Source: Chloroflexota bacterium
Lineage (GTDB): Bacteria > Chloroflexota > Dormibacteria > DASZGP01
Reading direction: 5' to 3'
DNA: 41,685 bases
Assembly (NCBI GenBank): GCA_034666445.1
Contig: JAXDLV010000068.1
Span: 1-41,685 of the forward strand
The notes under the pieces were generated by a model. That model made no database searches. It saw only the letters and a list, made by a program, of their open reading frames with translations, and had not been told where the DNA came from. How positions within the stretch are numbered: position 1 is the first letter of the stretch; each line of letters opens with the position of its first letter. Positions 10,294-37,856 of the stretch are shown piece by piece. Made by a program: the position numbers and the translations under genes.

Positions 10294-10965
10294 CTACTCG
10301 ACCAGGGCGGCGGTGAGGAGCAGGCGCGTGCTGTAGCTGTGGACGGCGGCCAGGTACGTCCCGGAGCAAGTGATCAGCGTGATCGTGGGAGTCCCCTCCC
10401 GCGCGTACAGGTCGTCCGGGATCGTGGAGTTGTAGGCCACGGTGCGCGACCGGCTGACGGCAAAGTGGTGCGTGGTGCCGTCGGCCGCGGTGAAGCTGAT
10501 GCGGTCACCTATCGACAGCGTGTGGAGGTGGTAGAAGACAGCCGGGCCGGTGTACCAGTCGAGGTGGCCCTCGATGATGGCGTTGCCGGGCTCGCCCGGC
10601 CTCACGGCGCGGTTGAACACCCCGACGTCCCAGATCCCGGGGGTGGTGTCCATGGCGCCGGCGCGTGTCACGCCGACCTCGCGCGCCACGGCGTTGACGC
10701 TGATCCTGGGGATGGAGAGCATCCCAATTGCGCCCGCCGGCAGCGCCGGCCGCGGCGGCGGCGGGAGGTCGGGGGCGACGAGCAGCGCGTGGTGCCCGTC
10801 CTCGGCCACGATGGCCACCACCGCGGGGGTTTCGGCGGTCGCCTGCTGCACCGGCTCGGTGAACGCGGCGGACCCAGCCACGATCAACGCCATCAACAGC
10901 GCCACCGGCATGACGCGCGCCCACGGCGGGAGCAGCCTTGGATTCATGGGTGCATATCCTGCCAA
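10294..10965 (-). CDS. Sortase family transpeptidase (class E/F-like)
   Basis: N-terminal TM anchor, LSIPRISVNA, catalytic His in IIEGHLD, TLITCSG (TLxTC Cys), and conserved Arg in YSTRLLL. Confidence 0.8.
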   Translation of the reverse strand: MAGYAPMNPRLLPPWARVMPVALLMALIVAGSAAFTEPVQQATAETPAVVAIVAEDGHHALLVAPDLPPPPRPALPAGAIGMLSIPRISVNAVAREVGVTRAGAMDTTPGIWDVGVFNRAVRPGEPGNAIIEGHLDWYTGPAVFYHLHTLSIGDRISFTAADGTTHHFAVSRSRTVAYNSTIPDDLYAREGTPTITLITCSGTYLAAVHSYSTRLLLTAALVE

Positions 10966-10993
10966 GCCGGCGGCCGGATGTCATTAACCATGC

Positions 10994-11833
10994 TCAGTTG
11001 GACCACGCCGTGATCTCCCTCCCCAGCCAGCTGGCCAGCTCCCGGTTGGGAGCCGCGAAGTGCTCCTCCAGGCGGGCTCGAACGTCGGGCTCCATCTCGG
11101 GGTAGGCGGCCTCGTCGCGGTTCAGCCTGTCGAGCCGGCGTGCCAGCCCGGGGGCGATGCTCCACGCACGGACCCGCATCATCGCCTTGCGCAGCCGCCA
11201 GGAGCGGAAGCTGTGGCTGGCGTTGAAGACCTCGCCGAGGTTGGGCGGGGTGAAGGCCTCCTCCACGCCGAGGAAGCGATGGAGCTCGGACAGCACTGCC
11301 TCCGGGGCATCCACCATCTCCTCCAGGATCATCACGTGGATGGCGGCGCGGGGGTAATGCTCCGCCACGTTGCGGAGCTGGGCGGCGTAGTGGCCCAGGC
11401 CGATGTAGGCGCCGGGCTGAGCCGGGCCCGGTACCAGCGGGCGCGGGTCGTCGATGTCCATCGCCTCGGCAAAGGAGCGGAGGTCGGTGCCACGACGGCG
11501 CACCTGCCAGTAGTGCGAGTAGGCGCGCTCGATCGGGTTGCGCAGGATGGCGACCAGCCGGGCGTCGGGCAGAAGCTCCGCCATCCGCCGCGGCGCGTCG
11601 GGGTCGACCATGTAGGTGGGGGTCGCCTCCCCCACCGCCTTCTCCGAACCGGCGCGGGCGAAGTGCGCCAGGTACCACTCCGGACCCTCGCGGTGGCGGC
11701 GGTCGAAGTAGCGCAGCTCCTTCTCGGGCGCCATGTAGACGTCCGGGTGGGCGCCGAGGTAGCGCGCCAGGGTCGTCGTCCCCGACTTGGGCGCGCCGAT
11801 GACCAGGAAGGTGGGTAGCCGGGACTCCGCCAT
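10994..11833 (-). CDS. Sulfotransferase domain protein (PAPS-dependent)
   Basis: FLVIGAPKSGTTTLARYL (5'-PSB loop) and ILRNPIERAYSHYW (3'-PB motif). It ends 28 nt upstream of the sortase. Confidence 0.8.
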   Translation of the reverse strand: MAESRLPTFLVIGAPKSGTTTLARYLGAHPDVYMAPEKELRYFDRRHREGPEWYLAHFARAGSEKAVGEATPTYMVDPDAPRRMAELLPDARLVAILRNPIERAYSHYWQVRRRGTDLRSFAEAMDIDDPRPLVPGPAQPGAYIGLGHYAAQLRNVAEHYPRAAIHVMILEEMVDAPEAVLSELHRFLGVEEAFTPPNLGEVFNASHSFRSWRLRKAMMRVRAWSIAPGLARRLDRLNRDEAAYPEMEPDVRARLEEHFAAPNRELASWLGREITAWSN

Positions 11834-11885
11834 CGGTGGCTATCCTCTCAACTGACCGGCGACTTTGTCAGGGAGCGTCACGACG

Positions 11886-12464
11886 ATGGGACAACCAGGC
11901 GGCAACGCGGTCGAGACCGAGCTCAAATACCTGGGCGCCGACGCCGGCGCCGTCCGCGCCGCGCTGCAGGCGGCCGGTGCGAAGCTGGAGTCGCCGCGTC
12001 AGCTGGAGGTCAACCTGGTCTTTGATGACGAGGCGGGCAGCCTGCGCGCCGCCGGCCGCCTGCTGCGCCTGCGCGACGGGCACGAGCTGACGGTCAAGCT
12101 GCCGCTGGAGGACGACCGCTTCAAGGCGCAGCGGGAGATCACGGTCCACGTCGCCGACGGCCCCGTCGAGGAGCTCCTGGGGGGCCTCGGCTACCAGGCC
12201 CGGGCTCGCTACGAGAAGTACCGCGAGGGCTGGGACCTCGACGGCATGTGGGTCACGATCGACGACCTGCCCTTCCTTGGCACCGTCGTCGAGATCGAGG
12301 GCGACCGCGGCGGCATCGACGCGGCGGCCAAAAAGCTCGGGCTGGGGCAGGCGCAGACGTCCACCCGCAACTACCTGGCGCTCTTCGCCGACTACGCGGA
12401 GGCCCACCGCCTGTCCCCCGACCAGATGACGTTCGCGGCGGCGGGGTCGCAGCCGGGGGCCTAG
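11886..12464 (+). CDS. CYTH domain protein (class IV adenylate cyclase / triphosphate tunnel metalloenzyme family)
   Basis: N-terminal VETELKY (ExExK signature), LRLRDGHELTVK and WVTIDDLPFLGTVVEIEG. Start set at ATG 11886 rather than TTG 11865. Confidence 0.8.
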   Translation: MGQPGGNAVETELKYLGADAGAVRAALQAAGAKLESPRQLEVNLVFDDEAGSLRAAGRLLRLRDGHELTVKLPLEDDRFKAQREITVHVADGPVEELLGGLGYQARARYEKYREGWDLDGMWVTIDDLPFLGTVVEIEGDRGGIDAAAKKLGLGQAQTSTRNYLALFADYAEAHRLSPDQMTFAAAGSQPGA

Positions 12465-12513
12465 GTTGTTCGGCTCACGAGATCTGCCGACAGCAGCGGC
12501 TGATCTGTAGTCA

Positions 12514-12693
12514 CCAGGGCGGCCGACGCCGCACATCCTGGGGGTTCATCCGGCCGGCGCTGCGACCAGGCCTTTCACATCGCACCGCGCCGGCCTGCCT
12601 GCGCGGGCGTCCGCGCTGACATCAGCTTTAGTTCTCTACTCTCCCGCCCGCTCCGGAAATCACCCCCAGGATGCGCGACGCCGTCCGCCCTGG
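12514..12693. repeat. Left stem-loop module of the foldback (32-bp stem enclosing 116 nt)
   Basis: 12514-12545 pairs with 12662-12693: 28/32 Watson-Crick, and 31/32 with G-U if read as minus-strand RNA. An inner 9-bp helix GGCCGGCGC 12552-12560 pairs with GCGCCGGCC 12587-12595. Confidence 0.6.
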
Positions 12694-12878
12694 ACTGCGC
12701 ACCACGGCGCCGCTGCTCTGATCCGCGATGTCCTCATCGGAGGTGGGATCAGCCGTTGACGGTCTGTCGACAGCGGTACGGCAAGTGCAGCGCTGTTGAG
12801 CTGCCGAAGGTCGCCTGAGGCAGGTTTCACCTCTAACAAGTCATCGCGGATAGAGCGACAGCTGCCCCCGCGCGCAGT

Positions 12879-13054
12879 CCCGAGTGCCGGGTGCTGCAGA
12901 CCCGGGGGCGATTTACGGAGCGGGCGGGATGTGCATCTGGCATGAGCTACGCAGATCACGGCCGCACGCGCAGTAGGCCGGCGCAGTGGCATCGGACTGC
13001 TGGACGCAGCGCCGGCCGCATGAGCCCTCGGGTCTGCGGCTCCCGGCGCCAGGG
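12879..13054. repeat. Right stem-loop module of the foldback (31-bp stem enclosing 114 nt)
   Basis: 12879-12909 pairs with 13024-13054: 25/31 Watson-Crick, and 28/31 with G-U if read as plus-strand RNA. An inner 9-bp helix pairs 12976-12984 with 13009-13017. Confidence 0.6.
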
Positions 13055-13103
13055 CCACCCGATACCCGCGGCAGCTGTCACGTTATCTCGTGAGCTGTAC
13101 CCC

Positions 13104-14198
13104 TTAGGGCGGGGCGCCCGCCTTCAGCCGCTCGATGATCGCGTCGGCCACCTGGCTGGTGCCCACGGCGGTGGGGTCGTTGCGGTCCGCCTTCATGTCG
13201 TAGGTCACGTTCTTGCCCTCGGCGATCACCGCGGCGATGGCGTCCTCCAGCCGCTGGGCGGCGTCGGTCTCCTTCAGGTAGCGCAGCATCATGACGCCCG
13301 AGAGCAGCATGGCCATCGGGTTCATCTTGTTCTGGCCGGCGTACTTGGGGGCGCTGCCATGGGTGGCCTCGAAGACCGCGATGCCATTGCCGACATTGGC
13401 GCCGGGAGCCAGCCCCAGGCCGCCGATCAGGCCGGCGCCGAGGTCCGACACGATGTCGCCGTAGAGGTTGGGCAGCACCAGCACGTCGTACAGGTCAGGG
13501 TTCTGGACGAGCTGCATGCACATGTTGTCGACGATGCGGTCCTCGAACTCGATGTCGGGGTAGTCGCGCGCGACCTCCTGGGCGACGTGGAGGAAGAGGC
13601 CGTCGGTGAACTTCATGATGTTGGCCTTGTGCACCGCGGTGACCTTCTTGCGGCCATTGTCGCGGGCGTAGTCGAACGCCGCCTGGACGACCCGGCGGCT
13701 GCCGAAGATGGAGATTGGCTTGATCGTGATGCCGGAGTCCTCGCGGATCGTGCGGCCGGCAGCCTCGCTGAGGAACTCGATCACCCTGTGGGCCTCGTCG
13801 GTCCCCTCCTGGAACTCGATGCCGGCGTAGGCGTCCTCGGTGTTCTCGCGCACCAGGACGAGGTCGATGTGCTCATAGCGGGAGCGGACCCCCGGGTAGC
13901 TCTTGCAGGGACGGAACAGGGCGAAGAGGTCGAGCTCCTTGCGCAGCGCTACGTTGACGGAGCGGATGCCCTTGCCGATCGGGGTGGTGATGGGCCCCTT
14001 GATGGCCACCTTGTTGCGGCGGATCGACTCCAGCACATGCTCGGGGAGCGGCGTGCCGTGCTCCTCCATGACGTTCTCACCCGCCTGGAGGACCTCCCAC
14101 TCGAAGTCGACGCCGGTGGCATCAAGCACGCGCATCGTGGCCTCGCTGAGCTCGGGGCCGACGCCATCGCCGGGGATCATGGTGGTCTTGTAGGCCAT
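13104..14198 (-). CDS. Isocitrate/homoisocitrate dehydrogenase family protein (NAD-IDH-like)
   Basis: [61 protein letters not shown] and [19 protein letters not shown]. Start set at ATG 14198, with a GAAAGGGAAG purine-rich SD upstream and 23 nt after the previous gene. The track start at 14312 overlaps that gene. Confidence 0.85.
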
Positions 14199-14221
14199 TG
14201 TGTTCTTCCCTTTCTTTTCGG

Positions 14222-15220
14222 CTAGATGACGAACTGTCCGTCCCGCATCAGGTACTGACCGTCGACCTTGATGGTCGAGCGGGTGGCCACGACATCGCAG
14301 TGGCTGGGGCAATCCCAGTCGGCGCCGGTCTCCTGCCCGTAAGGAAAGCCGAAGGCCACGTGGACCCCCGGGATCTTCTCATCCTGCAGTAGGTTACCGG
14401 TTAGCTTCTTGAGGGCGACGTTGGTACCGATGGCGAACTCGCCGGCGCGGTTGCTGTTCTCGTGCTGGGCCAGGTACGCCTCCATCTCCTGGCGGATTTC
14501 GTCGTCCGGGTGGGTCACCTTGCGCACCCTGCCGCGGTCGACCTCGAACAACATGGGGTGCTCGAGGACGCCGTACCTGGCGGAGAAGTGGTCGCCGAGG
14601 ACCTCGGCGCCCAGCACGCCCTGGAGCGAGGCCGGCGAGGTGAACGTCTCGCCCTCGGGCAGGTTGCCCCACTCGCCCGGCGCGTGGTAGATGCCGTTGC
14701 ACGGGTGCCAGCGAAGCCGGCCGGGGTCCAGCTCGGCGCGGGCATCGGTCCCCGACGGGGCGGTGACCTCCACCAGCCGGGCGTCCTTGACCACCTCGTT
14801 GACGCGCAGGGTGAGCCGCGAGATCTCCTCGTAGTCGGCCGCCATCCCCTCCTCCATCAGCTGCACCGTGATGCCCGGCATGTGGCCGTGGCGAGCCTTG
14901 AGGTCGTAGATGACGTGCCTCGTGAGCGGGGCGCGGAGAGCCAGCTCGCCCTCCAGTGACTGGGCGGCATAGAAGGAGACCGTGGGGTGGAGGTCGTCGA
15001 TGCGCTGGAGGAGCTCGTCCGGCAGTCCCTGGGCGGGCCGGGTGGTGAAGTCCTCCAGCTTGAGAACGGTGACCGGGGCCTCGACCAGCTCACACTCCGC
15101 CGCGAGCGCGTGGCCGATCTCCCCGGTCGCCTCGTCGGTGATCACCAGGACCTTGTCCCGGGGGCCGATCCCCATGCAAACGTTCACGGCGTTGGCGGCG
15201 CCCTGGCGAAGGTCACCCAT
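14222..15220 (-). CDS. Aminopeptidase, M29/AmpS (aminopeptidase T)-like family
   Basis: 332 aa with [25 protein letters not shown] and IPGVHVAFG. This is as I recall for COG2309-type thermophilic metalloprotease-like proteins. The family assignment is from memory only. Confidence 0.55.
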
Positions 15221-15600: not shown

Positions 15601-17268
15601 TCAGGTGACTCGAAAGATGGTCACTTTGCCGTTCTCGTAGACGGGCTGGAGATAGCCCTCGGTTCGCGGCTCAAACGCCACGGTCGCGGCCTCCAGCACA
15701 CCGAAATACAGGTAGCTGACGCGGCGCGCGCGCAAATAGCCGTGGCGGTCCATCTCACCCGGGCGGAAGAACTGAGCGGTCGCCCGCTCCTCCGCATCGT
15801 AGTCGGGCGTCATGGACGCGTTGCCAAACGCCACGTGACGGACCCCGTAGGCTGCAATGAAGCGCGCTGTCGGTGGCGTCGCGAGGATCACTGCGTCCGG
15901 CTCGGTGTGTCCGCGGATCCAGGCCATCGCTTCGGCCCCACCCGGCTCGAGATATAGGTCGCGCGCGCCGTTTACGGGGGTGGCGCTGAAGGACACCAGC
16001 GTCACCAGCGTCGTCGGCACCGCGGCCAGGACGACGAGGTTGATGGCAAGCGACCGCAGCCGCCGCCGATCCATGGGCAGGCCCCGCCAGGCCGCGAGCC
16101 GGTTAAACCAGCCGGCACGGCCAAGGCGCGGCACCAGGCCGTGGACCAGCGCGCCCGCGGCGATGCCGGCAAGGGCAAGCTGAACCCCCTCCAGGCGGTG
16201 GTCGACCAGGTCGGTCGGTATGCAGGTCTCGAGCACGCTGGCGACCACGAAGGACCACGCCACCACCTGCCCGGGGGAGGCCCTGCGCAGGCGCGCGCGC
16301 GTCACCGGGGCCGCCCAGAGGGCGAGGAGGCCGGGTAGCCCAAGCCCGAGGAGGTAAAAGAGGGGGTTCGGATTGGGCAAGTGGGATCCTCGGAGCGCCA
16401 GGCCGGCGCTCTCCGGCCGGCCCAGGACCAGGACCAGGAGAACACCCAGCCAGGCCGAGCCGGCAGCCACAACCAACCCCAGCTGGCCGAGCAACGGGAG
16501 CCGGAACGCCTCGCGCGGCGCCAACCAGAGGACGGCCAGAGCGGCGGTGAGGAGGAGGACCGCGACCTTGTCGGGATGCACCATCGCGACGACTGCAGTC
16601 GCCGCTGCCGCGACGCCGGCCGCTCGCCAGTTTCCCTGGGGCCTCGACAGGAGCGACAGAAAAGCCCGCATCGCGAAGATGAACGCCAGCAGTACCAGCC
16701 CGTGGTGAGGGACGCCGATCAGCGCGCCAAAAGTGCTGCTTTCGCCGAAGTACAGGTCCCACAACCCGCGGGGAGCCTCGCGCAGGGCCGGGACGGCCAG
16801 CTCGTAGAGGCCGAAGCCCGATCCGAAAAAGGCGAGCAGGAAACCCACGCGCCGGGCCACCAGGGACGGCGTGACCTCGCGGAGCAGCTTCCACGCCTGC
16901 CACAGGGTGAGGCCGGCAATGACCAGCCGAGCCGCCTGGTAAGCGAACCCGACGGAGGTGGGGCCAAACACGGCGCCCGGCACGAGGTGACCCAGGAGAG
17001 AGTAGAAGGGGAAGAGGGGGACGTTGGGCATGGGCTGCCAGGTCCAGACGTTGACGAATCCCCACTGGCCGCCGCTACCCTGCCCGGCCTGCGCGAGGTA
17101 GATAAAGGAATCGCCCGGGTTGACGTAGATCCAGGTCCAGGTTGCGCCAGGCGGCGTCAGGGCCACCCCCACCACCAGCGGCAGGGCCAGCATGAGCATC
17201 AAGATGCCCGACCACTGGATCGCGAAACGGCGGTCACCCCCTCCGGACGGGGGCCGCTCCGCCGTCAC
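15601..17268 (-). CDS. Polytopic membrane protein, GT-C-like (paralog A of 33407..35101)
   Basis: At least 10 hydrophobic segments and a C-terminal soluble domain of about 130 aa. Collinear similarity to the 33407..35101 product. No family name is recognised and the glycosyltransferase-C call is a topology-based guess. Confidence 0.55.
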   Translation of the reverse strand: MTAERPPSGGGDRRFAIQWSGILMLMLALPLVVGVALTPPGATWTWIYVNPGDSFIYLAQAGQGSGGQWGFVNVWTWQPMPNVPLFPFYSLLGHLVPGAVFGPTSVGFAYQAARLVIAGLTLWQAWKLLREVTPSLVARRVGFLLAFFGSGFGLYELAVPALREAPRGLWDLYFGESSTFGALIGVPHHGLVLLAFIFAMRAFLSLLSRPQGNWRAAGVAAAATAVVAMVHPDKVAVLLLTAALAVLWLAPREAFRLPLLGQLGLVVAAGSAWLGVLLVLVLGRPESAGLALRGSHLPNPNPLFYLLGLGLPGLLALWAAPVTRARLRRASPGQVVAWSFVVASVLETCIPTDLVDHRLEGVQLALAGIAAGALVHGLVPRLGRAGWFNRLAAWRGLPMDRRRLRSLAINLVVLAAVPTTLVTLVSFSATPVNGARDLYLEPGGAEAMAWIRGHTEPDAVILATPPTARFIAAYGVRHVAFGNASMTPDYDAEERATAQFFRPGEMDRHGYLRARRVSYLYFGVLEAATVAFEPRTEGYLQPVYENGKVTIFRVT

Positions 17269-17508: not shown

Positions 17509-17517
17509 TGTGATACT
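17509..17517 (+). promoter_or_regulatory. Extended -10-like TGtGATACT, 8 nt upstream of ATG 17526
   Basis: TG 17509-17510 + GATACT 17512-17517. It shares the nonamer GATACTTGG with 5256-5264. Confidence 0.25.
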
Positions 17518-17525
17518 TGGCGCCG

Positions 17526-19133
17526 ATGCGCAGTAGCCGCTGGTCCAGGGCGGAGGTGCCTCTCTGGCTGGCGCCTCTTGTGCCATCAGTGGTCGCTGTC
17601 GTACTCGTGGCGTGGTTCGACCGTGCACCCGTGCCGGCCCTGAGCGACGACTGGGTCTACATGTGGGACGTGCGCCACCTTCTCAGCGCGCATCAGCTGG
17701 CCGTGTTCCCGGAGCAGTCGGCGTGGGGCCTCATCCAGGTGCTCTGGAGCGCCGTGGTAACCCTGGGCCACCCGGAGCCGGCCCTTCTGCGCTTGAGCCT
17801 GCTGCCATTCCTCATCGCGCTTGGCCCCTGCTCCTGGCTGCTGGGCCTCGAGGCGGGAGCCTCCCGCTTCTGGGCGCTGGTGGTCACGGGGTCGGTGCTC
17901 TGCGGCCCGGTCCTCCTGTCGATGTCGGTAGGGTACAACACCGATATCGCCTACCTCGCGCTGGTTCTCGGCGCCGCCCTCTTCGGCGCGCGGTGGGTTG
18001 GCGGGCGCGGCGGCATGTCTGCCTGCATCATCCTGTGCGTGCTCGCGACGCTGCAGCGAAATGTCGGCGCCGGTGCCGCCGTGGCCATCGCCGCCACCCT
18101 CGCTTTCTCCTGGCGAAGGACCCCGCGCAGCCGCGCCGACGCCATCGGCGTCGTCGTGCTGGCCGGCCTGGTTGCTGCGGCAGTCGCCGCGCCATACCTG
18201 ACACAGCAGGCCAGCCCGTTCATGCGCGGAGCGATCCTGTCCCGGGCCTTCTCCCTGCGGCCTGCCATCCAGACCGGCCTGCGATTCGGTGCGACGATCG
18301 GGCTTCTCACGGTGCCGTTTGGGCTGGCTGCGCTCACCGCGTCGAGAGACCGCCGCGATCGATCCCTGCTCGCCATCGCCGTCGGGATCCTCGGCCTGGT
18401 CGGGGTATCGGCCGCGCTGACGGGCGGCGTCAACATCTTCGAAGGCGAGATCCTGTCGTCCGCGGGCCTCGGCGCAGACCCGCTGCTGGGACCCAAGCCG
18501 ATGCTCTATGGCGCCTGGTTCGTGGTGATCGAGCTGCTGGCGGCCTCCGTGATGCTGGTGATACTGGTGTTCCGGAGCGGCCTGTGGCGCCGGCTACATC
18601 GCCCGGTGCACCTGCTGCTGGTGCTCACGGCTCTTTCCCAGCTGGCCCTGCCGGCGGCGCGTGCCCCGCTGGACCGATACATGGTGGTCGCCGTGGTACC
18701 CCTGCTGCCGCTGGTTGGGGCGCTTGTCTCCCGGCACCTGCGTTGGCAGGTCGCGGCACGGGGCTGGGCCGTCGCGGCGCTGTTCGCCGGGGTTGCGGTG
18801 TTTGCGATTGGCGAACAGGACCTGCTCGCGTGGGAGGCCGCCAGGTACGAAGCCGCCAGGCTGGCCTTGGAGAGGAGTCCGGGCCTGGAGGTCCAGCTCG
18901 GGTACACGGCCAATGCACTGCTGGTGGAGATCCCCTACTTCGACTCCACCGGCCGCCTGCCCCCGGATACGCTGCCTGACAACCCGTGGGCCCTGCGGGG
19001 ACCGCTGAGCCCCACCACGAGGCTCTGCTTCGCCACGCTCGACGATCCGCGGCCCGGCGCCACGTACTCGTCGCTCGCGCCTGGCCGCGTCGTGGTCGAC
19101 TCGGTGGCCTCGCCGCTGCCGTGCGGGGTCTGA
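17526..19133 (+). CDS. Polytopic membrane protein, GT-C-like (ArnT/PMT-style topology)
   Basis: About 12 hydrophobic segments, an acidic DDWVY motif after TM1 (position typical of GT-C catalytic Asp) and a C-terminal soluble domain. Start set at ATG 17526, because TTG 17517 overlaps the -10-like element. Confidence 0.5.
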   Translation: MRSSRWSRAEVPLWLAPLVPSVVAVVLVAWFDRAPVPALSDDWVYMWDVRHLLSAHQLAVFPEQSAWGLIQVLWSAVVTLGHPEPALLRLSLLPFLIALGPCSWLLGLEAGASRFWALVVTGSVLCGPVLLSMSVGYNTDIAYLALVLGAALFGARWVGGRGGMSACIILCVLATLQRNVGAGAAVAIAATLAFSWRRTPRSRADAIGVVVLAGLVAAAVAAPYLTQQASPFMRGAILSRAFSLRPAIQTGLRFGATIGLLTVPFGLAALTASRDRRDRSLLAIAVGILGLVGVSAALTGGVNIFEGEILSSAGLGADPLLGPKPMLYGAWFVVIELLAASVMLVILVFRSGLWRRLHRPVHLLLVLTALSQLALPAARAPLDRYMVVAVVPLLPLVGALVSRHLRWQVAARGWAVAALFAGVAVFAIGEQDLLAWEAARYEAARLALERSPGLEVQLGYTANALLVEIPYFDSTGRLPPDTLPDNPWALRGPLSPTTRLCFATLDDPRPGATYSSLAPGRVVVDSVASPLPCGV

Positions 19134-19174
19134 CAGGTCGATCTCGCCAGGGTCATCAACCCGGTCGGCGCGGG

Positions 19175-20104
19175 TCAGGCGGAGCGGAGTCTCCCTATGA
19201 GGCGGTCGCGGTCGACCTGGCGCTCGGCGTGGTAGGAGCTGCGCACCAGCGGGCCTGACTCCACCCAGCGGAAGCCGAGGTCGAGCGCCTCGACCTTCAG
19301 CGCGTCGAACTCGTCGGGGTGGTAGTAGCGCACCAGCTCGTGGTGCTTGACGCTGGGGCGCAGGTACTGGCCGATGGTCAGGATCTCGACGCCGGCGGCG
19401 CGGATCTCGCCCATCAGCTCCGACAGCTCGTCGCGGGTCTCCCCCAGGCCGACCATGAAGCCGGTCTTCGACTGGGTGCCGGGATCGAGCTCGCGGGCCC
19501 GCCTGAGCAACTCGAGGGACTGATCGAGGTCGGCCTTGGGGCGGACGCGGCGGTAGAGGCGGCGGACGGTCTCGACGTTGTGGTTCAGGATCTCCGGCTG
19601 CGCCTCCATCACCGTCGCCAGCGCATCCCAGTTGCCCTGGAAGTCGGGCGTAAGCACCTCGATCGAGGTGGTCGGGCAGAGCTTCCGCGTCTGGCGGATC
19701 GTCTCCGCGAAGAAACGCGCCCCGCCGTCGGGCAGGTCGTCGCGGTCCACCGACGTGATCACGGCGTGGACCAGGTTGAGCTTGGCGATCGACTCCGCGA
19801 CGCGCCGCGGCTCGTCCTCGTCCAGCCACGTCGGCCGGCCGGTCTTCACCGCGCAGAAGGCGCAGGCGCGCGTGCAGGTGTCGCCCAGGATCATGAACGT
19901 CGCCGTGCCGGCGGTCCAGCACTCGCCGATGTTGGGGCAGTGGGCCTCCTCGCATACGGTGTGGAGGCGCTCCTCGCGCATCAGCTCCTTCAGCCGTGAG
20001 TAGGTCGGTCCCGCAGGAAGGCGCACCTTAAGCCAGTCGGGGCGGCGGCCACCGAACGCTTCGGGGCTGCCGCCAACGCCCGCCAGGACCGGGAGCTCCT
20101 CCAT
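19175..20104 (-). CDS. lipA: Lipoyl synthase
   Basis: [13 protein letters not shown] plus the radical-SAM motif [10 protein letters not shown], and [10 protein letters not shown]-like [11 protein letters not shown]. Start at ATG 20104, 2 nt after the E2 stop. The track ORF to 20563 is a spurious extension through E2. Confidence 0.92.
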
Positions 20105-29558: not shown

Positions 29559-30851
29559 ATGAGTCCCTTGCGGTCTGCCGCCACGGCCGCCGCGGAGGTG
29601 CCCGGCCGGGGCCTCAGCTGGCGACCAGGGCTGGGGACGGCGGTGGTCGCGGTCCTCTGCGTGGTCTTCGCGGGCTGGCTGTTCACGCCTGCGTGGGCGG
29701 ACCAGCGCGGCCCCGACAGCAAGGACTTCTATGCCGTCGCGACCCTGTCGGCGCGCGGTGGCAATCCATATGACCCGGCGCAGCTGGGCGCGGAGGAGGA
29801 CCGCCTCTACAACCGGGGCGGGGCCGTCCGCGTCGGCGACCCGGGCTATTACGCGTTCAACCCGTACGGCTACCCCCCGCTGGTAACCTCCGCCCTTCGG
29901 CTGGCGGAGGGCGTCGGCCCCGACGCCTTCTACCTCGGCAGCGCCATCCTGCTGCTGGCCGCCGGCGTCGCGGGCTTCGAGCTGCTGCTGGCGACGCTCC
30001 ACTGGCGGCGACGCTGGCTGGCCCGGCTGCTGTTCCTCGCCTCCACCCCCATGGCCCTCTCTGTCTTCACGGGCAACCCGTCGCCCATCCTGCTGCTCGC
30101 CTGGGCCGGCGCGCTGTGGCTGATGCAGCGCGGGCGGCCCGTCCTGGGAGGCGCGGTCCTCTCCGTGTGCCTGCTCAAACCGCCTGTTGGCCTCCCGGTG
30201 GCCGCAGCCCTCCTGCTGGTCGGCCCGGGGCGCCGCCCGGTGGCAACGGCGGGGTTCGCGGGTGGCGCCATCGCCTGGGCGGCAGCCAGCGTGGCGCTGG
30301 GTGGGGTCGAAGCTCACCTTCGCTGGATCGAGGTGCTCGTGGGCTACGGAGGCGGCCTGGGGCCCGGCGCGCGTGCGTCAGCGTTCTCCCAGCTCGGCCT
30401 GGTCGGGGTGCCTGCGCTGCTGATGGACCACGTGCCCACCGTCGTCGCGGTCGGCGCCGTCGGCGCGGTCCTTGGGGCCCTGGTCGCGTGGGCCTGGCGC
30501 GCGCCCGGGATGCAACCGGCGGTGAAGGGTGAGCGGTGGGTGGCGCTGGCCCTGCTGGTGGCCGCCGGCCTGGCCCTCACCCCCTACGTCCACCTCAACG
30601 ACCTGGTCCTGGAGGCGTTCCCGGTCCTGGTCCTCGCCTCCAGCCGGCTGGACATCGCCGGCCGCCTCACGCTCCTGGGTGCCGCCCTCGGCGCGCCGCT
30701 GCGGATCGCGCTCTCGCTGGTGACATCGGTGTTCCTCGGCAGCGCCCCGGGCACCGGCAGCACCCCCGGCTGGGGCGTGGCGCTGACGGCGATGCTGGTC
30801 GTGTGCCTGGTCCTGGTGGCGCGCCGGCCGGGCGCGGCGGTGTCGCCATGA
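29559..30851 (+). CDS. DUF2029/GT87-like polytopic membrane glycosyltransferase candidate
   Basis: KDFYAVATLSARGGNPYDP after TM1 resembles the DUF2029 (PimE-type) signature as I recall it, followed by about 10 further TM segments. Start set at ATG 29559, the first ATG before TM1. Confidence 0.6.
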   Translation: MSPLRSAATAAAEVPGRGLSWRPGLGTAVVAVLCVVFAGWLFTPAWADQRGPDSKDFYAVATLSARGGNPYDPAQLGAEEDRLYNRGGAVRVGDPGYYAFNPYGYPPLVTSALRLAEGVGPDAFYLGSAILLLAAGVAGFELLLATLHWRRRWLARLLFLASTPMALSVFTGNPSPILLLAWAGALWLMQRGRPVLGGAVLSVCLLKPPVGLPVAAALLLVGPGRRPVATAGFAGGAIAWAAASVALGGVEAHLRWIEVLVGYGGGLGPGARASAFSQLGLVGVPALLMDHVPTVVAVGAVGAVLGALVAWAWRAPGMQPAVKGERWVALALLVAAGLALTPYVHLNDLVLEAFPVLVLASSRLDIAGRLTLLGAALGAPLRIALSLVTSVFLGSAPGTGSTPGWGVALTAMLVVCLVLVARRPGAAVSP

Positions 30852-32263
30852 ACACGCCCGCGCTGAAGGGCGGCGACCCCCTTCGGCTGGCGATCGCCGT
30901 GTCCGCGCTGGTGGTGGCCGGCGCGGTCACGGAGCTGCTCCTCATGGCCGGCGTCCCCGGGCTGGCCTGGCCCCTGGTGCTGGCGGCGATGGTGGCGACG
31001 GTGGCCCTCTGGCGCCCGCGGCCCGAGGCCCTCGCCGCCCTGTTGCTGGTGGCCGGTGTCGAGCTGCTGCTGCCCGTACACACTGGCGGCGGCCGCTACA
31101 ACGACTGGCTCCTGCACTACGAGATCAGCCTCCACTACGCAGGGCTGCCGACGCCCGTGGACCCCGGCTTCCTCTCCGCCAGGACGCCGTTGTTCCACCA
31201 GCTCGCCGGGGCGGTGCTCGCGCTGCGTGCGGACTACTGGGTCTTCCAGCTGGTGGCGGTGTTCCTGAACAGCCTGTGGCTCTGGCCCGCCGGGCTGCTC
31301 CTCGGCGAGCGCGGCGGCGGACGGGCACGCCTGCTGGCGGTGGCGCTGTCGCCATTCCTGCTGGCCTACGGCGTGTACACCTGGCCGTGGGCCTTCGCGG
31401 GGTTCTTCATCCTCGCCGCCACCTACCTCGCCGGACGCCCCGGTCGGATGGCGTGGGCCGGCACCGGGGTGGCCATCGGCGCGGCCTTCCTGGCCCACTC
31501 CGCCACCGCCGGCTACGGCCTGGGACTGACGGCGTTCTTCGCCGCGCGGGAGCGCGACCGGCTGCTGCCCGCGCTGGGGATGGGGGCGCTGACCGCGGCG
31601 ACCCAGCTGCCGTGGACCTTCGCCATCACCGGTGGGGCCGGACCGTTAGGTGTGCTGCTGGCCGTGGACCCGGTCGTGCAGCGCGTCCCGGTGGACGTCT
31701 GGCTGCTGACCCGCCTGCTGGTCGTGGCACACTCCCTCATCCCGACGCCACCGCTGCTGCGCGGCTGGGAGGTGCCGGACACAGTGATCGTGGTGTTCGT
31801 CCTCAGCCTGCCGGGGGCCCTGATGGGCCTCCTCCTGGTCGCGCGCCGCTGGCTGCGCCGGCCAGGGCCGCTGCCCTGGATGCTGGCGTTCGGCGCCGGC
31901 CTCGGCCTGCTGGCCTATCCCCCGCAGCAGTTCCTCAGCGGGATGCTGGACGCGCTCTTCCCGGGCGTGCTGCTGCTGACCGTGGCCGTGGTTGCGGCGA
32001 TCCCGGATTCGATCGTGCGTCGGCTTCTGACCGTCCAGGCAGGACTCGCCGCGCTCTTCCTCGCCGCACTGGCGCTGGTCTCGGCGCTGCCGTCAGGCGC
32101 GGACCCCAATGTCGCACTCAAGCTTGGCTACGGGGCGCGCTTCGCGGTGGAGGCGCTGACGCCGGTGCCGGGCGTCGGCCTCCTTGCCCTCGCCGCGGTG
32201 ACCGGGTTTATCGCGCTTCGGCCTGCGCCCTCGTCGCCTCCCAGCGCAGGTAGCTCTCCATGA
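30848..32263 (+). CDS. Polytopic membrane protein, GT-C-like
   Basis: ATG 30848 overlaps the upstream stop (ATGA). There are about 12 TM segments, and a loop RYNDWLLHYEISLHYAGLPTP...ARTPLFHQL follows the early TMs. The 3' end overlaps the prfB 3' end by 56 nt. Confidence 0.5.
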   Translation: MNTPALKGGDPLRLAIAVSALVVAGAVTELLLMAGVPGLAWPLVLAAMVATVALWRPRPEALAALLLVAGVELLLPVHTGGGRYNDWLLHYEISLHYAGLPTPVDPGFLSARTPLFHQLAGAVLALRADYWVFQLVAVFLNSLWLWPAGLLLGERGGGRARLLAVALSPFLLAYGVYTWPWAFAGFFILAATYLAGRPGRMAWAGTGVAIGAAFLAHSATAGYGLGLTAFFAARERDRLLPALGMGALTAATQLPWTFAITGGAGPLGVLLAVDPVVQRVPVDVWLLTRLLVVAHSLIPTPPLLRGWEVPDTVIVVFVLSLPGALMGLLLVARRWLRRPGPLPWMLAFGAGLGLLAYPPQQFLSGMLDALFPGVLLLTVAVVAAIPDSIVRRLLTVQAGLAALFLAALALVSALPSGADPNVALKLGYGARFAVEALTPVPGVGLLALAAVTGFIALRPAPSSPPSAGSSP

Positions 32264-33372: not shown

Positions 33373-35045
33373 GCCCCGAGTATATGGAGGCAACGCCGGC
33401 CGGCCATCAGCCGCCAACCCGGTACAGGGCGGTCGCGCCGCAGCGGTGGACGGGGGCGCCCGCGACCCGGGCCGGGTCGAGGCCCACGCCGGTCTGGCGC
33501 TCGCGCGGGCCGAAGTAGATCCAGTCCACAGAGCGGCTCACCATGTAGTCCGTCGCCGGCCGGCGACCGGCGAGGAGGTCGCGAGCGGCCTGCACCTCCT
33601 CGGCCGAGTGGGGCGTGTACGAGGGATCGCCATAGACGGCACGAACGTGGGCGTATGTGACGCTGAACCACTCGCTGTCGGGGCCACCGAAGACCACGTC
33701 GTCGCCGCGGGCGTTGTCTCGCAGCCACGCCAGGCAGGCGGTGTCGTCGGCGCTGACATACGGCGCGTCCGCGCCGGCCCGGGCGACCGCCGCCGGCACC
33801 AGCGTCAGCACCATGATCGACGGCGTCGAGGCCACCACCAGCGCAGCCGTGAGGAGGCGCCGCGGGCGAACCCCGCGCAGGCGCGGCAGGATATCGCGCG
33901 CCAGGGCCCAGCCGGCGAGGCCCGCAACGGCCACCGGCAGGCCCTCACCGGCGTGCCAGCCGCTGGCCTGCGGCGCCAGCACCAGCACCGGGGTCGCCAG
34001 CACCACTCCCCAGAGGAGCACCACGCCGGCATTCGCCGCACGCCCCGCCCGTAACAGCGACGGCAGCCCCACCAGCGCCAGCAGCCCCGGTATGCCCACA
34101 CCGAACAGGAAGTACGGCACCAGGGCGTGGATCGCCCCGGGGCTGTCCTGCGCCAGCGCCCCCTGGACCTGGGCGTCGGTGCGGGTGAGCCAAAGGCTGA
34201 GCAGGGCATAAGGCGCCCCCCCGGCCAGCACCATCAACGCCCTGCCCGCGGCGGCCGCCGGCGGCCTGCCGTCGCGCCACCACGTCCACCCCAGCAGCAC
34301 GGCGGCGGCCAGCGCCAGCAGGATCACCCGCTCGGGGTGGATCACGGACAGCGCAGCGGTGGCGGTCAGCCCCCAGGCCACCGCCCACCGCCGCCCGGGC
34401 GAGCCTGAGGTGACCTTCAGCAGGGCGCGGAGGACCACGACGATGAGCAGCAGCGTGGCCACCAGGTGCGGCTCCCGCACCATCGAGCCAAAGGCGCTGG
34501 CCTCCGCCAGCTGGAGGTCGAAGGGCGCGTCGCCGAAGCTCAGCGCGGGCACCAGCGTCGGCACCAACCCGAGGCCGGCGGTGAACAGCAGGAACACCAG
34601 CGCCAGGCGCCGCGACAGCCGTTCGGCCAGCGCCTCGGCATACAGCCGCCACGCCTGCCAGGCCAGCAGCGCCGACAGCACGACACGCGCCAGCTGGTAA
34701 ACCACCGCGACCACCGCCGGTCCCGCGCCAGGAGGGACGAGGAAGCCAAGCGCGCCGTAGAAGAGGTTGATCGGCAGCGCGGGCAGCTGCTGGTAGGTGA
34801 AGTAGGCGCGCCACATGCCGAGGTCGGTGTAGGCGTGGGTCATCGAGGTCAGGTAGCGGTACTCGTTCTCGGGCGCGAACAGCACGCCCGTGTAGGTGGC
34901 GCCCGGCGGCGTCGACAACAGGACGATGGCGTACGGGATGCTGGGGAGCACCGCCGCCAGCACGACGCAGCAGAGCAGGAACGCGCGGTCCCGGCGCGCG
35001 CCGCCGGGCGTCAGGACGGCCTGGGGGTTACCGCCAGCGGGTTGG

Positions 35046-37856
<2,811 letters not shown>

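Follow-up and report, generated by a model that had tools for sequence, protein, structure and literature searches.

In the 41,685-nt contig JAXDLV010000068.1 (hereafter the window), which its CYTH homologues assign to Candidatus Dormibacterota, an uncultured soil phylum, the 639-bp spacer between two convergent genes, encoding a CYTH-domain protein and isocitrate dehydrogenase (icd), is occupied by an orphan foldback element. It consists of two inverted and diverged copies of one unit, each of which closes into a branched single-stranded domain (Table 1). The stems of the two copies have changed in sequence and still pair, and the core of the junction has kept its sequence. Such maintenance of base pairing during sequence change suggests that the fold of an RNA (or of single-stranded DNA) may be under selection. 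We consider selection on the single-strand fold, most simply as RNA, somewhat probable when all its versions are taken together, and describe the element as a candidate, possibly functional, twin-hairpin insertion. An earlier reading of the same DNA (the original prediction) had recognized one long stem in each half and had proposed selection on structure and two divergently transcribed RNAs; the larger palindrome beyond these stems and its lineage-specific insertion lay outside what that reading had seen.

The CYTH-icd spacer is entirely one imperfect palindrome, in which positions 12465-12790 align with the reverse complement of 12790-13103, and the two arms are 63.6% identical from end to end. 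The identity is mosaic: identical columns come in runs of 14, 14, 11, 10, 10 and 9, so that runs of nine or more number six against an expected 1.9 (p = 0.0025), and the windowed variance gave p = 0.006. Terminal inverted repeats are present, as the palindrome reaches GCTCACGAGAT / ATCTCGTGAGC at 12473-12483 and 13085-13095. The 8-nt flanks, GTTGTTCG and TGTACCCC, contain no direct repeat, and divergence of the empty sites in relatives prevents definition of a target. Within the 41.7-kb window there is no other large cluster of inverted repeats, and no tandem repeats were found. An assembly artefact was rejected, since a chimeric palindrome would be perfect whereas the arms are 36% diverged, and since the spacer recurs unchanged in an independent JGI contig. 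A further independent short-read contig (Logan SRR24887429; L011, 1806-1838) has an identical CYTH gene and stops 33 nt inside the palindrome, a position that fits an assembler stopping at a hairpin-forming region.

A consensus fold was computed with RNAalifold on the two arms, and its coordinates were mapped back to each copy. Each arm forms a closed domain of ~265 nt, in which helices P1, P2 and P3 (31-32 bp) are followed by a three-way junction with P4 and P5. Helix P1 has 12 pairs, 10 of which are invariant between the copies and two, at its ends, compensated; it includes a shared G.U pair at 12726/12477 in the outward sense, that is, with the left unit read on the minus strand and the right unit on the plus strand. 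The block GCTCACGAGAT occurs at only two places in the window, namely the left and right P1. The sequence and register of P2 differ between left and right, while the helix is perfect in each copy. P4, P5, most of P1 and the junction strands do not vary between the copies, and the 3-bp hairpin in the distal part of P5 holds two compensated pairs. Moreover, a near-invariant block, TCCCGCCCGCTCCGKAAATC, which continues into the base of the stem, lies at 12642-12670 and 12901-12929 with 90% identity over 29 nt.

The longest helix, P3, has three A.C and one C.T mispairs on the plus strand in the left copy, and three G.T, one A.C and two other mispairs in the right copy. The repeat finder placed the two stems at 88% complementarity with a 116-nt loop and 81% with a 114-nt loop, respectively. 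Given the composition of the window and spacers of at most 200 nt, chance would yield 7e-5 stems of 28/32 and 0.03 stems of 25/31 per window, and the best stem in five shuffles of the window reached 24/32. Compared to shuffled sequences, the modules folded with z-scores from -4.8 to -7.6 in all orientations, and the whole spacer with -12.6 and -13.4. The coordinates and pair counts of the two P3 stems in the original prediction were reproduced pair by pair; the identical 9-bp helix that it reported in both loops, and the near-invariant block that it placed at the base of the 3' arm, are also present.

Table 1. Features of the foldback element and its two flanking genes (coordinates in the window; strand cells are empty where no strand is assigned)
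Feature	Coordinates	Strand	Description
Whole element	12465..13103		Imperfect palindrome of 639 bp with its centre at ~12785, from one stop codon to the other; missing in nearest relatives
Left self-folding unit	12472..12733	- (tentative sense)	Closed by P1; RNA fold -156.4 kcal/mol minus vs -136.5 plus; z -6.6 and -7.6
Right self-folding unit	12839..13096	+ (tentative sense)	Closed by P1; RNA fold -152.7 kcal/mol plus vs -144.8 minus; z -5.0 and -4.8
Left P1, gene-proximal strand	12472..12484		Block GCTCACGAGAT; pairs with 12720-12733, centre-proximal block ATCCGCGATG
Right P1, gene-proximal strand	13084..13096		Pairs with 12839-12852; helix equals left P1
Left P2	12492..12500		AGCAGCGGC; perfect 9-bp helix with 12709-12717; in the fold with G-U disallowed and the DNA fold
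Right P2	12857..12866		GACAGCTGCC; perfect 10-bp helix with 13070-13079; inverted repeat I6 and the fold with G-U disallowed
Left P3, arm 1	12514..12545		Pairs with 12662-12693; 28/32 Watson-Crick, 31/32 with G-U on minus
Left P3, arm 2	12662..12693		Pairs with 12514-12545
Right P3, arm 1	12879..12909		Pairs with 13024-13054; 25/31 Watson-Crick, 28/31 with G-U on plus
Right P3, arm 2	13024..13054		Pairs with 12879-12909
Left P4 hairpin	12552..12595		Invariant 9-bp GGCCGGCGC/GCGCCGGCC helix (12552-12560/12587-12595; 12 consensus pairs), variable loop
Right P4 hairpin	12976..13017		Identical invariant helix, 12976-12984/13009-13017
Left P5	12603..12651		Invariant 6-bp GCGGGC/GCCCGC (12603-12609 with 12645-12651) around variable distal part
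Right P5	12920..12969		12920-12926 with 12963-12969
Left copy, most conserved block	12642..12661		TCCCGCCCGCTCCGGAAATC; P5 strand and junction strand into P3; 2 matches in window vs 0.01 expected
Right copy of this block	12910..12930		Reverse complement of TCCCGCCCGCTCCGGAAATC; P5 strand and junction strand
Central spacer between units	12734..12838		105 nt, palindromic; small hairpins 12752-12782 and 12792-12821; consensus helices 1-3, 3 compensated pairs
CYTH-domain gene (class IV adenylate cyclase-like)	11886..12464	+	Pfam CYTH E=4.9e-12; stop codon 8 nt ahead of the element's first conserved block
icd (isocitrate dehydrogenase)	13104..14198	-	Pfam Iso_dh E=1e-105; stop codon 8 nt from right P1 block

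Comparison of the two copies revealed that the pairing of P3 has outlasted much of its sequence. The homologous P3 arms (left against the reverse complement of right) are identical at 21/32 and 18/32 positions, in line with the ~20/32 of the original prediction. Between left and right, 15 pairs are unchanged, six underwent double changes in which a Watson-Crick pair was replaced by a different such pair, and one base pair was deleted on both sides. The remaining changes comprise one double change that breaks pairing and nine one-sided changes, each of which is a mispair in one copy. When an equal number of changes was placed independently on the two arms in simulation, six or more compensations arose with a probability of 7e-4, and a mean of 12.6/32 pairs survived against the 25 observed. 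Over the whole consensus, 15 of the 82 pairs are compensated, distributed over at least six separate helices (the P1 ends, P2, P3, the distal P5 hairpin and the central hairpins). This number was reached by none of 500 column shuffles, which gave 7.4, and it dropped to 0-1 when the partners were slid by 1-3 columns. As the compensation extends over many helices of both copies, is interleaved with one-sided mismatches and accompanies an invariant junction core, the pattern is the usual one of a functional structured RNA.

The same figures bear on neutral decay of a one-off inverted duplication, produced for example by fold-back repair of a break, whose stems and conserved blocks would be leftovers or chance. 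Such a relic would account for a single locus without homologues, and the left-with-right pairing of any inverted duplication is indeed the thermodynamic optimum of the region. However, mosaic conservation (p about 0.003-0.006) is not an outcome of uniform decay, 25-28 intact pairs remain where ~12.6 are expected, the 15 compensated pairs exceed those of both the shuffled and the slid alignments, and stems of this quality are not at chance level by the per-window expectations above. Neutral decay is therefore disfavoured, and we regard it as very improbable.

Several features point to the outward sense of the units. Six of the seven purine-pyrimidine mispairs of P3 become G.U in this sense, as originally predicted. 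RNAalifold on the modules in both orientations gave one consensus architecture, which is more stable outward than inward (-109.2 vs -76.3 kcal/mol), and folding of the individual units favours the outward sense by 20 (left) and 8 (right) kcal/mol. The z-scores fail to discriminate the strands. To avoid circularity, the units were refolded with G-U disallowed, and only symmetric mismatches inside Watson-Crick helices were counted. These G-U-free helices hold eight independent outward G.U events against two A.C (one-sided binomial p about 0.055), so that the predicted strand hint persists as an excess and is statistically weak. In addition, five of the nine one-sided P3 changes are C-to-T when scored on the outward-sense strand, a direction that would be expected of a non-template strand.

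Two independent paralogous small-RNA genes, each of ~260 nt, diverging from their own central promoters and ending next to the flanking stop codon, would fit the excess of outward G.U over A.C (8:2, or 6:1 in P3 alone), the lower outward folding energy, the direction of the C-to-T changes and the tandem G.A/A.G mismatches that appear conserved above P3 in the outward sense of both copies. We nevertheless find this arrangement quite improbable. The interval between the two P3 stems is free of TANNNT hexamers on both strands, and of the two in the whole spacer neither is placed to drive the unit RNAs. The element has no match to a sigma-70-type promoter, a negative weakened by the uncharacterised promoter consensus of Dormibacterota, and no terminator-like hairpin with a T-run; no Rfam family matched better than E = 0.23. 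Moreover, the outward sense of each unit is also the read-through product of the opposite gene, so the strand hint needs no divergent promoters. The part of the original prediction that weakly favoured two divergently transcribed RNAs thus gained nothing from the hexamer, the sigma-70 or the U-tract searches.

Coding potential was likewise considered for the spacer. Hidden small protein genes were rejected, because the arms differ by frameshifting indels of 1-2 nt and the open reading frames (ORFs) of 20 aa or more encode Arg/Pro-rich sequences that one arm does not share with the other. Such translations of small ORFs are typical of non-coding DNA with a high GC content. A Pfam search with the spacer's longest ORF, of 132 aa, gave no match. 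Two longer ORFs, of 444 aa (12891-14225, plus strand) and 222 aa (11868-12536, minus strand), run antisense through icd and CYTH, respectively, from starts within the two P3 stems; they mirror one another and resemble the antisense ORF artefacts common in GC-rich DNA.

Short motifs in and around the helices were also recorded. Directly above P3, as read from the sequence, 5'-GA-3' stands opposite 5'-GA-3' in both copies in the outward sense (12660-12661/12546-12547 and 12910-12911/13022-13023). This conserved GA/GA could form tandem sheared G.A pairs, and would give pyrimidine-pyrimidine mismatches in the inward sense. The heptamer GCGCAGU (outward sense; 12694-12700 and 12872-12878) is conserved and unpaired in the internal loop between P2 and P3, and CGCGCAG is located between P5 and P4 in each copy (12597-12603 and 12968-12974); the two may represent a recognition motif or a GC-rich coincidence. 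The ends of left P3 carry CCWGG (CCAGG/CCTGG) on both arms (12514-12518, 12537-12541, 12666-12670 and 12689-12693), in place of which right P3 has CCCGGG and CCAGGG, and no significance was established for this difference.

A number of results weigh against selection on an RNA fold. Folding with single-stranded DNA parameters gives the same architecture and the same strand preference (-85.6 vs -72.7 kcal/mol). For a full-length transcript, the optimum is a giant hairpin of left with right (-372.5 and -395.9 kcal/mol, against -335.8 and -337.8 for the local halves), which is favoured by 37-58 kcal/mol over the two local folds, so that the local domains would have to form co-transcriptionally. 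The original prediction had foreseen mutually exclusive folds of this kind, and left-with-right pairing is indeed the minimum-energy fold of a spacer-long transcript. The strand asymmetry is weak at p about 0.055, and the signature of an intrinsic terminator is missing, with 0 terminator-like sites and no T or A run of at least 4 in 12465-13103. The covariation evidence comes from two paralogous copies at one locus, with the consensus structure derived from those same sequences and no orthologue to provide an independent covariation test. Finally, even without selection on RNA, template switching during replication can introduce 'compensatory' changes of several bases and preserve the pairing of stems (PMC8794818). 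The predicted step from compensatory change to selection on structure accordingly stands as far as two-sided changes exceed independent divergence, and is qualified by the two paralogous copies and by a mutational process that gives the same pattern.

The origin of the element was traced by comparison with relatives. The nearest sampled ones are distant, with CYTH at most 69% and icd at most 89% identical. The three closest icd relatives checked share 87-89% amino-acid identity in pairwise alignment, and the fourfold-degenerate sites of icd are 34-46% diverged from them, which is near saturation for the codon bias. The stop codons of icd and CYTH lie 18 bp apart in L036 (2847-2864) and 5 bp apart in L038 (3211-3215), and overlap in L046 (3595-3598). 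A 115-aa rhodanese gene is found at the CYTH-icd junction in L013 (3102-3449) and L015 (3061-3408), and a gene of ~1100 aa with guanylate-cyclase, AAA and TPR domains in L012 (3066-5573) and L037 (3617-6095). None of the seven relative loci examined carries the element. Since it is missing where the stop codons abut or overlap in the three nearest relatives checked, it represents an insertion. Judged from these alignments, it is a lineage-specific insertion at a variable junction, with both reading frames intact.

Three other origins of the spacer were rejected. It is not a pseudogene or remnant of the rhodanese or cyclase gene of the relatives, as tblastn, tblastx and blastn against those loci returned noise only. 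It is not a replication origin or dif site, since there is no GC-skew switch at the element and the flanking CYTH and icd are not replication genes. Integration linked to a tRNA was discarded because the tRNAs of the window are at least 4 kb away.

An insertion of this type might instead be a foldback element at the DNA level, either a non-autonomous mobile one, like a miniature inverted-repeat transposable element (MITE) or a foldback transposon, or the relic of one, whose arms are kept complementary because both ends of an inverted repeat have to suit one DNA-binding or transposition machinery, or because template switching within quasi-palindromes copies one arm from the other again and again, without any RNA function. 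We judge this possible, though rather unlikely. The clean lineage-specific insertion with both reading frames intact, the junction that holds nothing, a rhodanese gene or the 1100-aa cyclase gene in relatives, the nested inverted repeats, the agreement of the single-stranded DNA fold with the RNA fold, and the promoter and terminator signals not found in the element are all consistent with it. Template switching has been documented both to give rise to stems with multi-base compensatory changes and to maintain them (PMC8794818), and MITE-like bacterial repeats that fold as long hairpins are well known (PMC2229807). By contrast, no further copy was found in the window or in the 20-mer, viral, plasmid, phage and protein-cluster searches, and the insertion has no recognisable target-site duplication; the ORFs scanned include neither a transposase nor an integrase. 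A recently mobile copy would not be expected to show the 36% divergence and mosaic pattern of the arms. Furthermore, compensation in at least six helices of both copies would require several stem-wide template switches, each independent of the others and spanning 116-210 nt of spacer.

Searches for further copies and homologues showed that the element is an orphan. There is no second copy within the 41.7-kb window. The conserved 20-mer gave chance matches only in 185,579 species-representative genomes, JGI metagenome contigs and viral contigs; both large DNA scans failed to return the window's own sequence, so that the rest of the source genome lay outside the search, and an exact 20-mer misses diverged copies. 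The 27 hits of the 20-mer scans are all single. Two of them (L005 and L018) lie in coding sequence, and the similarity of the others extends over about 20-26 nt, or 49 nt at 78% in L019. The seven viral-contig hits of a second conserved block all differ in sequence context and are apparently coding. Plasmids and phages gave no blastn match, and when about 186 kb of fetched loci and the window were searched with an nhmmer profile of the arms, only self-matches were found. With the spacer alone searched to E 10, Rfam 15 gave no family: the best hit was narK RNA at 19.9 bits (gathering threshold 43.2, E=0.23), and the others, at 13-20 bits, were at chance level. The 132-aa ORF had one marginal match (E=6.7e-4) among 1.84 billion protein representatives, and the six concatenated frames recovered no called ORF over a related element from 5.8 billion protein clusters. 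A full-text literature search found no paper describing a non-coding RNA from Dormibacterota.

Taking these results together, we propose that a 639-bp foldback element of two inverted and diverged copies was inserted in one Dormibacterota lineage only, and that both copies are probably under constraint for a single-strand fold, in which the stems may change as long as they pair and the junction core keeps its sequence. The fold would most likely act as RNA. A transcript leaving CYTH or icd would cross both units, and the sense in which each unit pairs better would be that in which it is transcribed as the distal one, immediately ahead of the opposing gene. The element would most likely serve as a very stable structural block or processing site at the 3' end of the convergent transcripts. 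The long near-perfect P3 duplex would be the type of substrate cut by double-strand-specific RNases, and the block might reduce the read-through and antisense transcripts that enter the opposite gene, and shield the 3' ends. This version, a constrained fold at the end of two convergent transcripts reached by read-through, is one we hold tentatively, as plausible but somewhat short of probable. What the analysis demonstrates is the element's architecture, its compensated pairs, its inserted state and its lack of detected relatives; its transcription, the relevant strand and the role proposed are inferred. Going further, and with distinct doubt, the units could be the founding members of an undescribed class of ~260-nt structured RNAs in Dormibacterota, namely a long duplex capped by an invariant three-way junction. 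They would form a mirror-duplicated pair with purifying selection on both members, and might serve as a protein-binding or processing module that insulates the icd and CYTH transcripts; we consider this broader proposal unlikely.

Among known systems, the element appears to work most like MITE-like hairpin repeats and like REP/BIME pairs between convergent genes (PMC2229807, PMC3733652). In common with MITEs, it has terminal inverted repeats and is present or absent at an orthologous site, being missing in L036, L038 and L046. MITE-like families number tens to hundreds of copies per genome, mostly of 100-170 bp, with short terminal inverted repeats and, in many, target duplications. They often lie at 3' ends, and when co-transcribed they can affect transcript ends and be cut by double-strand-specific RNases. 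Unlike these families, the element is one 639-bp locus with two 64%-identical mirror copies and branched folds, and no further copy or target duplication was detected. The bacterial MITE-like intergenic hairpin repeats ERIC/IRU, Correia, YPAL and RUP share with the element that they are non-coding, intergenic inverted repeats folding as long hairpins (reviewed in PMC2229807). REP/BIME/REPIN are palindromic units that form extragenic inverted pairs, typically between convergent genes, with proposed roles in stabilising transcript ends and in termination (PMC3733652). However, REPs are simple palindromes of 20-40 bp, high in copy number and associated with RAYT, whereas the units of the element are ~265 nt long with a 32-bp stem and a 115-nt branched loop. 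In addition, the element occupies a single locus, and no RAYT or transposase was found among the window ORFs scanned.

The paralogous small-RNA pairs OmrA/OmrB and PrrF1/PrrF2 likewise consist of two diverged, adjacent and structured copies with conserved single-stranded blocks and stems that differ yet pair. The members of known small-RNA pairs are usually repeated in direct orientation, measure ~80-150 nt and have promoters and intrinsic terminators that can be recognised. The copies of the element, unlike these pairs, are inverted, ~265 nt long, and without promoter or terminator signatures or an Rfam match. Quasi-palindromes kept by template switching also have arms that stay complementary through multi-base two-sided changes (PMC8794818). 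Nevertheless, template switching is a mutational mechanism rather than a functional class, and alone it leaves unexplained the invariant junction core and the compensation in many helices across 116-210-nt spacers. Bidirectional intrinsic terminators similarly place a symmetric hairpin-forming sequence between converging stop codons and give both transcripts the same 3' structure. They consist, however, of a single short GC-rich hairpin with A- and T-tracts, compared to the 639 bp, two branched domains and missing T/A runs of at least 4 in the element; an intrinsic terminator was rejected, as the scan found 0 terminator-like sites and no U-tract. A retron msr-msd RNA, which would be marked by a reverse-transcriptase gene immediately downstream, was also rejected, because the element is flanked by CYTH and icd and then by sulfotransferase and M29 peptidase genes. 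So was a type I toxin-antitoxin system, since there is no conserved small hydrophobic ORF and the spacer ORFs are Arg/Pro-rich and unconserved between the arms.

The flanking genes, CYTH on the plus and icd on the minus strand, converge on the 639-bp spacer and are both of housekeeping type. The CYTH product as called has 192 residues and an identical copy on JGI contig L010, and its homologues carry the name Dormibacterota class IV adenylate cyclase. The 364-aa icd product has an exact match on JGI contig L009. Where identifiable by a Pfam scan of the window ORFs, about half of which had no match, the neighbourhood is housekeeping and includes a 2-oxoacid dehydrogenase complex, FtsEX, peptidases and LigD; the same scan, with about half of the ORFs unmatched, found no mobile-element gene, transposase, integrase or RAYT.

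The sulfotransferase gene (10994-11833, minus strand) adjoins a sortase gene (about 10294-10965, minus strand), and both lie between a DEAD/MZB helicase gene and CYTH. A sulfotransferase beside the sortase occurs only in the window and L012; the sortase stands alone in L036, L038 and L046, and both genes are missing from L013 and L015. Its presence in the 10294-11833 region is a second lineage-specific difference, less than 2 kb from the element. Five long ORFs have no Pfam match at E<=1e-5, namely 15601-17268 (minus), 17517-19133 (plus), 18594-19955 (minus), 30536-32263 (plus) and 33407-35476 (minus); some of them may be wrong-strand ORFs, and the contig has 70% GC. The 532-aa product that is called in L009 for 15601-17268 has no Pfam match and stands where the relatives L037 and L046 have lipoyl synthase upstream of infA.

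The claim for the element stays at the level of a candidate until transcripts or further copies appear. If it is a foldback relic maintained by template switching, it would be a cautionary case, in which pairing is better conserved than paralogue sequence without any RNA function. If the fold is functional, the element would be a large orphan structured element, whose two diverged copies in one locus provide an internal comparison that already reveals compensation. It would also illustrate clearly how a palindromic insertion can give a convergent gene pair the same 3' structure.

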